A stretch of DNA of 64,000 bases from Escherichia coli (GCF_030384885.1 NZ_CP128613.1); one strand, 5' to 3'; shown: positions 37,022 through 60,353, numbered from the stretch's first letter. The notes: generated from the sequence alone by a model not told the origin. Translations and numbers: made by a program.

Positions 37022-37735
37022 ATGAAGATTTTTTTGGAGAATCTTTATCGTTCTGATTGCTATTTCCTGCCGATAAGAGATAACCAGCAAGACCTTGTCG
37101 GCGTTGAGTTAATTACCCATTTCTCCAGTGAAGATGGTACGGTTCGTATACCGACGAGTCGGGTTATAGCGCAACTTACCGAGGAGCAACATTGGCAATT
37201 ATTTTCTGAGCAGTTGGAATTGCTAAAATCATGCCAACACTTTTTTATTCAACATAAACTCTTTGCCTGGCTTAATTTAACCCCACAAGTGGCTACTTTA
37301 TTATTAGACAGGGATAATTACGCGGGCGAACTATTAAAATATCCGTTTATTGAACTGTTGATTAATGAGAATTACCCGCATCTCGATGAAGGAAAAGATA
37401 ATCGCGATCTTTTGTCCTTATCGCAAATGTATCCCCTTGTGTTAGGTAATTTGGGCGCAGGCAATAGCACAATGAAAGCGGTTTTTGATGGTCTTTTCAC
37501 CCGCGTCATGCTGGATAAAAGTTTTATTCAGCAACAAATCACGCATCGCTCCTTCGAACCGTTTATTCGTGCGCTCCAGGCGCAAATTTCCCCATGTTGC
37601 AATTGCATCATCGCGGGGGGCATTGATACGCCAGAAATAATGGCACAGATTACCCCCTTTGATTTCCATGCTCTCCAGGGATGCCTGTGGCCTGCCGTTC
37701 CTGTAAATCAGATAACGACGTTGGTTCAGCGATAA
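37022..37735 (+). CDS. ydiV: Anti-FlhD4C2 factor YdiV (degenerate EAL domain)
   Basis: 237-aa ORF; the canonical EAL motif position reads ELI (DLVGVELITHF); AT-rich gene. Confidence 0.85.
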   Translation: MKIFLENLYRSDCYFLPIRDNQQDLVGVELITHFSSEDGTVRIPTSRVIAQLTEEQHWQLFSEQLELLKSCQHFFIQHKLFAWLNLTPQVATLLLDRDNYAGELLKYPFIELLINENYPHLDEGKDNRDLLSLSQMYPLVLGNLGAGNSTMKAVFDGLFTRVMLDKSFIQQQITHRSFEPFIRALQAQISPCCNCIIAGGIDTPEIMAQITPFDFHALQGCLWPAVPVNQITTLVQR

Positions 37736-40752: not shown

Positions 40753-40770
40753 GCACTAGTTCTCTAGTAC
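40753..40770 (-). promoter_or_regulatory. TrpR operator of the aroH promoter
   Basis: Reverse complement GTACTAGAGAACTAGTGC contains the paired CTAG half-sites of the Trp repressor operator; lies about 150 bp upstream of aroH and overlaps the last codons of ppsR. Confidence 0.6.
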
Positions 40771-41597
40771 ATTCGACGACTAAGGCCCATGATATCAAGG
40801 ATCTTGGTGGCAATCTCTTCTACCGAATAATTGGTACTGTTAATCCATGGGATCTGATTCTTACGGTACAACGCTTCCACTTCCGCGACTTCCATCCTGC
40901 ACTGACGAAGCGAGGCATAGCGACTGTTCTCCCGACGTTCCTCGCGAATCGCCGCCAGACGTTCCGGGTCGATAGTCAGGCCGAACAATTTATGCTGAAG
41001 CGGTTTGAGCGACGCGGGTAGCACCAGATTATCCATATCGTCGGCAATAAAGGGGTAGTTTGCCGCGCGGATACCAAATTGCATTGCCAGATACAGACTG
41101 GTGGGGGTTTTACCACAGCGAGAAACGCCGAGCAGGATCACCTGAGCCTGGTCCAGATTGCGCAACGAAATGCCGTCGTCATGGGCAAGGGTGTAATCAA
41201 TCGCCGCAATGCGCGCATCGTATTTATTGAGATTATTAGGGTTAAGGCCATGGGTACGATGAGCAATCGGCGTTGGATCCAGTTTCATCTCTTGCTGTAG
41301 CGGGGCAACCAGCGCCTGAACGATATCCTGGCAAAAGCCTTCACTTTGCAAGATGATGGCGCGAATCTCCGGCAACACGATGGAGTAGAAGACCAGTGGG
41401 CGCACACCTGTCTGGTGATAAATTGCGTCAATCTGATCCTTCACTGCCCGTGCACGGCTCTCATTTTCGACAAACGGCAGCGTAATGCTGCTGATAGTGA
41501 CGGGAAATTGTGACATTACTGCGTGTCCTAATACCTCCGCAGTTATTGCCGTACCATCAGAAATATAAAAAACGTGGCGATCAACAGCATTATCCAT
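40764..41597 (-). CDS. ppsR: PEP synthetase regulatory protein (bifunctional kinase/pyrophosphorylase)
   Basis: 277-aa [34 protein letters not shown] recognised as YdiA/PpsR; divergent from ppsA. Confidence 0.9.
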
Positions 41598-41827
41598 TTT
41601 GTTCTTCCCGTAATGCAGACATAATTCTATGAAAGCATAAATTAAAAACGCACAGAAGCGTAGAACGTTATGTCTGGTTTATAAAATGAACCTTCAATTT
41701 TATTTTTTATGAAAACAGCATTTCATTTTTACGGTTTCGTTTATACCGATGGTTTATGTGGAAATTGTCGAAGAGAGCAGATTTGCGCAACGCTGGGATC
41801 AGTCTTAAAAAGTAAAAAAATATATTT

Positions 41828-41843
41828 GCTTGAACGATTCACC
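41828..41843 (+). promoter_or_regulatory. Candidate Cra (FruR) site in the ppsA promoter
   Basis: GCTTGAACGATTCACC resembles the Cra consensus GCTGAAWCGWTTCAGC, about 90 bp upstream of ppsA. Confidence 0.5.
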
Positions 41844-41929
41844 GTTTTTTTCATCCGGTTAAATATGCAAAGATAAATGCGCAGAAATGTGTTTCTCAAA
41901 CCGTTCATTTATCACAAAAGGATTGTTCG

Positions 41930-44308
41930 ATGTCCAACAATGGCTCGTCACCGCTGGTGCTTTGGTATAACCAACTCGGCATGAATGATGTAGACAGGGT
42001 TGGGGGCAAAAATGCCTCCCTGGGTGAAATGATTACTAACCTTTCCGGAATGGGTGTTTCCGTTCCGAATGGTTTCGCCACAACCGCCGACGCGTTTAAC
42101 CAGTTTCTGGACCAAAGCGGCGTAAACCAGCGCATTTATGAACTGCTGGATAAAACGGATATTGACGATGTTACCCAGCTTGCGAAAGCGGGCGCGCAAA
42201 TCCGCCAGTGGATTATCGACACTCCCTTCCAGCCTGAGCTGGAAAACGCCATCCGCGAAGCCTATGCACAGCTTTCCGCCGATGACGAAAACGCCTCTTT
42301 TGCGGTGCGTTCCTCCGCTACTGCAGAAGATATGCCGGACGCTTCTTTTGCCGGTCAGCAGGAAACTTTCCTCAACGTTCAGGGTCTTGACGCCGTTCTC
42401 GTGGCAGTGAAACATGTATTTGCTTCTCTGTTTAACGATCGCGCCATCTCTTATCGTGTGCACCAGGGTTACGATCACCGTGGCGTGGCGCTCTCCGCCG
42501 GTGTTCAGCGGATGGTGCGTTCCGACCTCGCATCTTCTGGCGTGATGTTCTCCATTGATACCGAATCCGGCTTTGACCAGGTGGTGTTTATCACTTCCGC
42601 TTGGGGCCTTGGTGAAATGGTCGTGCAGGGCGCGGTTAACCCGGATGAGTTTTACGTACATAAACCGACACTGGCGGCAAATCGCCCGGCTATCGTGCGC
42701 CGCACCATGGGGTCAAAAAAAATCCGCATGGTTTACGCGCCGACCCAGGAGCACGGCAAGCAGGTTAAAATCGAAGACGTACCGCAGGAACAGCGTGACA
42801 TCTTCTCGCTGACCAACGAAGAAGTGCAGGAGCTGGCAAAACAGGCCGTACAAATTGAGAAACACTACGGTCGCCCAATGGATATTGAGTGGGCGAAAGA
42901 TGGCCACACCGGCAAACTGTTCATTGTGCAGGCGCGTCCGGAAACCGTGCGCTCACGCGGTCAGGTCATGGAGCGTTATACGTTGCATTCACAGGGTAAG
43001 ATTATCGCCGAAGGCCGTGCTATCGGTCATCGCATCGGCGCGGGTCCGGTGAAAGTCATTCATGACATCAGCGAAATGAACCGCATTGAACCTGGCGACG
43101 TGCTGGTCACTGACATGACCGACCCAGATTGGGAACCGATCATGAAGAAAGCATCTGCCATCGTCACCAACCGTGGCGGTCGTACCTGTCACGCGGCGAT
43201 TATCGCTCGTGAACTGGGCATTCCGGCGGTAGTGGGCTGTGGTGATGCAACAGAACGGATGAAAGACGGTGAGAACGTCACTGTTTCTTGTGCAGAGGGT
43301 GATACCGGTTACGTCTATGCTGAGTTGCTGGAATTTAGCGTGAAAAGCTCCAGCGTGGAAACGATGCCGGATCTGCCGTTGAAAGTGATGATGAACGTCG
43401 GTAACCCGGACCGTGCTTTCGATTTCGCCTGCCTGCCGAACGAAGGCGTGGGCCTTGCGCGTCTGGAATTTATCATCAACCGTATGATTGGCGTCCACCC
43501 ACGCGCACTGCTTGAGTTTGACGATCAGGAACCGCAGTTGCAAAACGAAATCCGCGAGATGATGAAAGGTTTTGATTCTCCGCGTGAGTTTTACGTTGGT
43601 CGTCTGACTGAAGGGATCGCGACGTTGGGTGCTGCGTTTTATCCGAAGCGTGTCATTGTCCGTCTCTCTGATTTTAAATCGAACGAATACGCCAACCTGG
43701 TCGGTGGTGAACGTTACGAGCCAGATGAAGAGAACCCAATGCTCGGCTTCCGTGGCGCGGGACGTTATGTTTCCGACAGCTTCCGCGACTGCTTCGCACT
43801 GGAGTGTGAAGCGGTGAAACGTGTGCGCAACGACATGGGACTGACCAACGTTGAGATCATGATCCCGTTCGTGCGTACCGTAGATCAGGCGAAAGCGGTG
43901 GTTGAAGAACTGGCGCGCCAGGGGCTGAAACGTGGTGAAAACGGGCTGAAGATCATCATGATGTGTGAAATTCCGTCCAACGCCTTACTGGCAGAGCAGT
44001 TCCTCGAATATTTCGACGGCTTCTCAATTGGCTCAAACGATATGACGCAGCTTGCGCTTGGTCTGGACCGAGACTCCGGCGTGGTGTCTGAACTGTTCGA
44101 TGAGCGCAACGATGCAGTGAAAGCACTGCTGTCGATGGCGATTCGTGCCGCGAAGAAGCAGGGCAAATATGTCGGGATTTGCGGTCAGGGTCCGTCCGAC
44201 CATGAAGACTTTGCCGCCTGGCTGATGGAAGAGGGGATCGATAGCTTGTCCCTGAATCCGGACACTGTGGTACAAACCTGGTTAAGCCTGGCTGAACTGA
44301 AGAAATAA
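41930..44308 (+). CDS. ppsA: Phosphoenolpyruvate synthase
   Basis: 792-aa ORF with phosphohistidine domain motif ([21 protein letters not shown]). Confidence 0.97.
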
Positions 44309-59967: not shown

Positions 59968-60353
59968 AACTACTTTTCACCTTTTTTGTGCGTCAAATCG
60001 TCGACGCGACGTGAACACGCGAAACTCACCTGCATAATGATGAGCAATTTCAGCGGTTTTTAACAGGCCGATTCTGCCCTTAATTCTGATGGGCGTGTTA
60101 GAAAAAAATGTGGTACAACAAATCAGGCAACACGCAAACGATTTACTCGTCGTATTTCAAATTGCATGTGCTGCGGCTACGTTCGTTCACCCCAGTCACT
60201 TACTTTTGTAAGCTCCTGGAGTTCACTCGCTTGCCGCCTTCCTGCAACTCGAAATCCATAGAGTAAACAAACATCACCTTTCAGTGCGCTATTAGAAGCC
60301 TGAAAGAACAGTGTATCGATCTACATCACAGACCGCAGGAAAGGGTCAATATA

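Follow-up and report, generated by a model that had tools for sequence, protein, structure and literature searches.

The window analysed here, a 64-kb stretch of Escherichia coli DNA, carries ppsA, the gene for PEP synthase (41930..44308, plus strand, 792 aa), transcribed away from ppsR, also known as ydiA (40764..41597, minus strand, 277 aa), which encodes the PEP synthetase regulatory kinase/phosphorylase. Both genes had been named correctly in the original prediction: PpsR matched the profile NF049928 at 430.6 bits (cut-off 350), and PpsA matched NF005057 and TIGR01418 at 1317 and 1290 bits, respectively. PpsR catalyses the ADP/ATP-dependent inactivation and the Pi-dependent reactivation of PpsA (PMC5700066). 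Beyond ppsR lies aroH, whose product is a DAHP synthase that also uses PEP, and beyond ppsA lies a gene for a medium-chain acyl-CoA ligase. The gene order, with ppsA on one side of the spacer and ppsR-aroH on the other, is conserved in Dickeya, Klebsiella, Serratia, and Yersinia, and our statement on aroH is limited to these four genera, while the loci from the Enterobacteriaceae were used to confirm the divergent ppsA/ppsR pair.

The spacer between the two genes (41598..41929) is 332 bp long and has a G+C content of 33.1%, compared with 49.2% for the window, in agreement with the AT-rich divergent spacer that had been proposed, and the Cra-like site predicted on its ppsA side, GCTTGAACGATTCACC, lies at 41828-41843, exact to the base. 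Of 5426 complete E. coli genomes, 5420 carry the spacer, with identities of 95-100%. It is 100% identical to that of E. coli 2013C-4282 and differs from that of K-12 MG1655 at two of 332 positions (41612 and 41732), which leaves the operator and core promoter unaffected. An Rfam search of the spacer and leaders gave no match at E <= 1, and a small open reading frame running from an ATG at 41709 to about 41877 was rejected because the central spacer is poorly conserved and shows no three-base periodicity.

The predicted site had been described as close to the Cra (FruR) consensus, and we found the agreement to be complete. On the minus strand the element at 41828..41843 reads GGTGAATCGTTCAAGC, and GGTGAATCGTTCAA, the reverse complement of the plus-strand site, matches the 14-nt Cra consensus RSTGAAWCSNTHHW quoted in PMC5829826 at 14 of 14 positions. 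The 64 kb contained no other exact match, against a chance expectation of 0.60; within the 332-bp spacer the expectation is about 0.003 exact matches by our own arithmetic. The operator is asymmetric: its half-site TGAATCG is perfect and the other is degenerate. The established Cra target pfkA served as a positive control and carries GCTGAATTGATTCA upstream, with one mismatch to the consensus. We did not find the operator sequence itself in print in the literature searched.

Such a match could also be a chance Cra-like sequence in an AT-rich spacer and have no function, and two of our counts can be read in that direction. The site scores 12/16 when compared with the palindromic 16-bp motif for Cra, gcTGAAtCGaTTCAgc (PMC5888115), and this score is not discriminating alone because seven sites in the window reach at least 12/16. 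Shuffling the window produced one or more exact matches to the IUPAC consensus somewhere in 46 of 100 shuffles. The crude palindrome count was replaced by the curated IUPAC consensus together with position and conservation, and on both of these the chance reading fares poorly, as set out below.

The position of the site can be fixed from an independently mapped ppsA transcription start at G41881 (NC_000913.2 1785185, minus strand, 420 reads; PLoS Genet 2012 Table S1), which gives a 49-nt leader (41881..41929, plus strand) with the Shine-Dalgarno sequence AAGGA at 41918..41922 on the same strand. Published coordinates were mapped as window position = 1829042 minus the NC_000913.3 coordinate, where version 3 equals version 2 plus 1976, so that the operator corresponds to 1787199-1787214 of MG1655 NC_000913.3; the sequence printed upstream of the ppsA start in Table S1 is identical to that of the window. 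The centre of 41828-41843 is 41835.5, or -45.5 from the start, and the site spans -53 to -38. PMC7897506, quoting Negre 1998, likewise centres the FruR operator of ppsA at -45.5. Published footprinting that placed the Cra site elsewhere had been named as the finding that would overturn the original prediction, and since the published centre quoted there coincides with the centre of the site, that challenge was passed. In PMC7897506 FruR/Cra is described, again after Negre 1998, as a class I activator of ppsA that makes the alpha C-terminal domain of RNA polymerase bind more strongly; it stimulates the promoter without being essential to it, and its binding is disturbed by fructose-1-phosphate. 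Direct Cra binding at ppsA is reported in PMC7897506 and appears in the reference lists of PMC7660256 and PMC4050194.

Comparison with the mapped promoter places the operator upstream of the -35 region, as would be consistent with activation. We assign the -35 region to TTTTTT (41846..41851, plus strand), a poor match to TTGACA (2/6 positions) that lies 17 bp upstream of the -10 hexamer, and we assign an extended -10 element to 41866..41874 on the plus strand (TG at 41866-67, C, and AAAGAT at 41869-74). Such a poor -35 would suit an extended -10 promoter that is helped by an activator. A generic promoter scan missed both real promoters of the spacer and proposed two minus-strand sites without support from mapped starts, one of which, at 41726..41697, has a -10 element that is also unsupported by conservation. 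Directly upstream of the operator is a moderately conserved A-tract, TTAAAAAGTAAAAAAATATATTT (41805-41827, -76 to -54 of ppsA), that, judged by its sequence, could act as an UP-like contact for the alpha C-terminal domain in class I activation. Downstream of the start, the 3' half of the ppsA leader (41902-41929) is nearly invariant across genera, and the stretch of it that covers the Shine-Dalgarno sequence, ACAAAAGGAUUGU, is similar to RUACARGGAUGU, the consensus for CsrA binding. Mutants in csrA show raised PEP synthetase activity, with which a CsrA-like leader sequence would fit.

The operator and the promoter elements below it are strongly conserved. PpsR loci were fetched from 80 species of Enterobacteriaceae, both gene starts being present in 78; 74 spacers from this family were aligned, and motifs were counted over 79 sequences. 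The ppsR and ppsA genes were divergent in 78/78 species, with a spacer of 327-341 bp in 72 of them. Over the 74 aligned spacers the operator 16-mer was 94.5% identical, against a spacer mean of 65%, and the top 16-mer windows of the whole spacer (starts at 41833-41836, 96-98%) overlap the operator. The half-site CGATTCA was kept in all 79 sequences and the other half-site alternated between TTGAAC and TTACAC among genera, so that 48 sequences matched the consensus exactly and 31 had one mismatch. This variation in a single half-site fits asymmetric FruR binding, which has been studied at the ace operator, according to a title in the reference list of PMC4050194. The extended -10 pattern TGn-NANNNT follows CGATTCA at a distance of 24 nt in 70/79 sequences and 25 nt in the remaining 9/79, and T41866, G41867, A41870 (-11), and T41874 (-7) were invariant in the 74 aligned sequences. 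Exact consensus sites (GGTGAATCGTTCAA or GGTGAATCGATCAA) in the same orientation were detected in Klebsiella, two Dickeya strains, Serratia, and Yersinia ruckeri; outside the Enterobacteriaceae the site is followed by TGTGC-TAnnCT, one base further off. Of 5419 E. coli genomes, 4784 have an identical sequence over the 71 bp that run from the operator to the start. The operator-promoter module is thus fixed across the order Enterobacterales.

It is this conservation (94.5% against 65%) that decides for operator function rather than chance. A functionless sequence would not be expected to sit exactly at the published distance from a start that was mapped independently, nor to be the best-conserved spacer element across a whole bacterial order, and the literature reports Cra-dependent, effector-sensitive activation of ppsA. 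Activation of ppsA by Cra is reported in PMC5888115, PMC4050194, and PMC5829826. A ppsA promoter-GFP reporter was induced 16-fold on acetate compared with glucose, and the same study used a promoter copy with a scrambled Cra site as its Cra-independent reference and compared the wild type with a cra deletion (PMC5555440). The chance reading is effectively refuted, and we give it next to no credence. The sequence at 41828-41843 almost certainly serves the sigma-70 promoter of ppsA as its Cra (FruR) operator. It is already known: a real and functional but ordinary element, the long-known Cra/FruR operator of ppsA.

In the account of this operator that follows, the present analysis supplies the site together with its uniqueness, register to the start, and conservation, and the papers cited supply Cra binding, class I activation, the effectors, and site-dependent regulation. 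At low glycolytic flux, as when cells grow on acetate or pyruvate, the effectors fructose-1-phosphate and fructose-1,6-bisphosphate are low and Cra would occupy the operator. Bound at -45.5 as a class I activator, it would help the alpha C-terminal domain to engage a promoter that relies on its extended -10 element, and transcription would proceed from G41881 through the 49-nt leader. Sugars would raise the effectors, releasing Cra and returning ppsA to its basal level, as could be expected from the finding that micromolar fructose-1-phosphate or millimolar fructose-1,6-bisphosphate counteracts Cra in vitro (PMC4050194). The PpsA protein is in addition controlled post-translationally by PpsR, through phosphorylation and dephosphorylation. 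The Cra-ppsA switch is a textbook example of how cells choose glycolysis or gluconeogenesis, and it already serves as a biosensor of glycolytic flux, so it holds no new biology; what we add is the anatomy of the spacer at base resolution, covering the two promoters, the extended -10 element, and the register of the operator.

The operator studied here is the natural allele at the same locus as the ppsA Cra operator of E. coli K-12 and shows no substantive difference from it (Ramseier 1993; Negre 1998, J Mol Biol 276:355). The icd, aceBAK, pckA, and fbp promoters are likewise Cra-activated from upstream through the same asymmetric TGAAWC-type operator, from which fructose-1-phosphate or fructose-1,6-bisphosphate removes Cra. 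Operator distances differ among these promoters, and the ppsA operator, at -45.5, lies right against the -35 region. Icd and AceK, again a target enzyme with its kinase/phosphatase, offer a parallel in concept, where aceK belongs to the aceBAK operon; in the PpsA/PpsR pair a suitably placed Cra site is found at the target gene alone. Cra activates both icd and aceA/aceB (PMC4050194). The Cra-repressed genes pfkA, pykF, and fruB share the recognition sequence, but their operators overlap or follow the core promoter and block RNA polymerase, whereas that of ppsA lies upstream and activates.

On the other side of the spacer, two ppsR transcription starts are reported on the minus strand in the same data set (PLoS Genet 2012 Table S1): G at 41627 (NC_000913.2 1785439, plus strand, 8 reads, 5'UTR of 30 nt) and A at 41622 (NC_000913.2 1785444, plus strand, 7 reads, 5'UTR of 25 nt). 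The probable ppsR -10 hexamer is TATGCT on the minus strand (AGCATA on the plus strand; 41634..41639), at -12 to -7 of the start at 41627. It lies within a conserved block at 41630-41647, of which 41630-41646 is 94.4% identical in the 74 spacers and forms the second most conserved block. This conserved hexamer is preceded by TTTTAATT. No conserved -35 element for ppsR appeared in the 74-sequence alignment, and the ppsR promoter looks like a weak one, possibly dependent on an activator.

The enzyme and its regulator had been described as sharing one divergent control region, and this view stands in part: the spacer is common to both genes, but the sharing is topological, as each has a separate promoter module. 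The ppsA and ppsR starts are back to back and 254 bp apart, and relative to the start of ppsR the Cra operator is centred at -208.5. We considered the reading that the operator is bidirectional and controls ppsR too, so that glycolytic flux would co-regulate the enzyme and its kinase/phosphorylase. The divergent arrangement in 78 species of Enterobacteriaceae as well as in Klebsiella, Dickeya, Serratia, and Yersinia speaks for it, and the 327-341 bp length held in most Enterobacteriaceae could suggest an integrated architecture. At 208.5 bp upstream of the ppsR start, however, the operator is far beyond the known class I and class II range and does not lie within regulatory distance of the ppsR promoter. 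The modules are also separable: in Intestinirhabdus a 243-bp insertion with a repeat element between 41731 and 41742 parts them and leaves both intact, and spacer length outside the family varies from 262 to 441 bp. Other insertions fall on the ppsA side, likewise with no module lost: one of 60 bp lies in the ppsA leader of Siccibacter, and one of 120 bp directly follows the ppsA -10 element in Buttiauxella B2. The ppsR starts have 8 and 7 reads, against 420 for ppsA, and the literature searched held no link between ydiA/ppsR and Cra. Because of the distance of -208.5, the separable modules, and the lack of a literature link, we consider control of ppsR by Cra very unlikely and infer that it is absent. 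A consensus scan found no second Cra site in the spacer; the nearest candidate for ppsR, TGAAAGCATAAA (41630-41641), has a core with one mismatch in which the C that is otherwise invariant is missing, and it falls on the -10 element.

Cra acting at ppsA, the reading we retain, is not necessarily the sole input to the spacer, since CRP and PdhR binding have been reported from SELEX. For CRP, the ppsA/ppsR region was among those bound, but this binding could not be assigned to a site because the best matches are poor: each has 3 mismatches in 10 (41757-41772 and 41794-41809), and only the left half of the first is moderately conserved. This half, TGTGGAAATTG at 41757-41767, is CRP half-site-like and 70-80% conserved in the otherwise variable spacer centre, with no conserved second half. 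For PdhR, genomic SELEX gave the box AGTTGGTTATACCAAAG (41960..41976, minus strand), an 11/14 match listed at 1785098 in old coordinates, together with an EMSA smear on a ppsA/ppsR probe (PMC7660256 Table 1). The PdhR box is outside the spacer, some 30 nt into the coding sequence of ppsA, and its full conservation is uninformative because the stretch encodes LWYNQL.

Several further candidates were rejected. The site of the pyruvate-sensing LytTR regulator YpdB/PyrR consists of two copies of GGCATTTCAT spaced 11-13 nt apart (PMC4847170), and the spacer has a single 9/10 copy, AGCATTTCAT at 41717-41726, with no second properly spaced copy that scores well; matches with one mismatch numbered 11 in the window, against 6.7 expected, so that a lone copy carries no significance, although a pyruvate sensor would have suited the function of the locus. 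A scan of the spacer with the IHF consensus gave no match, and a Fis pattern at 41677-41691 and an FNR-like match across the ppsA start codon were degenerate and unconvincing, as was an ArcA match with 5 mismatches to the consensus. Neither ppsA nor ppsR was present in the supplements of the iModulon paper that were searched.

The spacer contains a second conserved feature, nearer to ppsR. We detected two tandem palindromes: 'a', AATGAACCTTCAATTTTATT (41685..41704), with KdgR-box-type arms that are degenerate in Escherichia, and 'b', TATGAAAACAGCATTTCATT (41708..41727), with a perfect inverted repeat, ATGAAA-N6-TTTCAT, at 41709-41726. In most other genera palindrome 'a' reads AATGAAACGGTATTTTTAT. 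The two were 23 bp apart in 66/79 sequences, with centres at about -67 and -90 from the ppsR start, and the 53-bp block that holds them (41680-41732) shows zero indels in 74 species and contains near-invariant sub-blocks. The arms are AATRAAA/TTTYATT, half-sites of the KdgR type and not Cra-like; TyrR, MetR, ArgR, and IclR were set aside by inspection because their spacings do not fit.

These palindromes, rather than the Cra site, could be the shared input of the two genes, bound by KdgR or a related IclR-family protein that activates ppsR and possibly ppsA, a tentative reading that we hold to be possible but less than probable. The KdgR consensus is taken here as AATRAAAYRNYRTTTYATT, and 41709-41727 is its best match in the window, with 2 mismatches. 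The same arms occur in palindromes of the E. coli KdgR regulon at kduI (AAAATGAAACATTGTTTTATTTT and AAAACGAAACAGTGTTTCACTAT) and kdgT (AAAATAAAACAGCGTTTCAATTG), and upstream of kdgK inside AATAATGGAACACTGTTTTAATATG, read by eye. In Dickeya a classical N5 KdgR-type box, GTTGAAACGGCATTTCATT, whose half-sites are the same, lies 74-92 bp upstream of ppsR, at a position equivalent to that of palindrome 'a' and about -62 from a likely ppsR start. KdgR reportedly regulates ppsA and the adjacent ydiA positively in Erwinia chrysanthemi. The indel-free conservation of the 53-bp block in 74 species and the centres at -67 and -90, which are class I positions, would also suit an activator of ppsR.

The spacing of the arms counts against a straightforward assignment to KdgR. 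The reference boxes of kduI, kdgT, and kdgK are all N5, whereas palindrome 'b' fits these arms with a single mismatch when they are spaced N6, and among the 79 sequences the N6 arms had 0-1 mismatch in 66 and the N5 arms at least 2 mismatches in 78. The Enterobacteriaceae palindromes thus differ from classical KdgR boxes in having arms 1 bp wider apart and in forming a tandem pair. Site 'a' is degenerate in Escherichia, the spacers of Serratia and Yersinia ruckeri have no KdgR-type box, and the region is A/T-rich and of low complexity. As far as the literature could be checked, KdgR input to ppsR/ppsA in E. coli is not documented, and no reports of binding or expression in E. coli were found. 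If the reading were true, PpsR, which sets PpsA activity, would be tied to hexuronate/KDG catabolism, which yields pyruvate. The KdgR-like palindromes may then be a real link between ppsR and ppsA, and they might be the sole part of the locus worth further work.

Two observations concern repeated sequences elsewhere in the spacers and the window. Another N6 palindrome match with 2 mismatches, AATGAAAGCGGTTTTTGATG, lies at 37471-37490, about 300 bp upstream of selO (ydiU). One family of repeat elements, which we take to be ERIC/IRU from its appearance, has been inserted independently at three places in the spacer, in Intestinirhabdus (between the equivalents of 41731 and 41742), Buttiauxella sp. 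B2 (after 41876), and one Dickeya strain (near the ppsR start). The element is about 127 bp long in two cases, and in the third it lies within the larger 243-bp insertion. A related copy is present in the window at about 60141-60253, with 82% identity over 114 bp to the copy in Dickeya.
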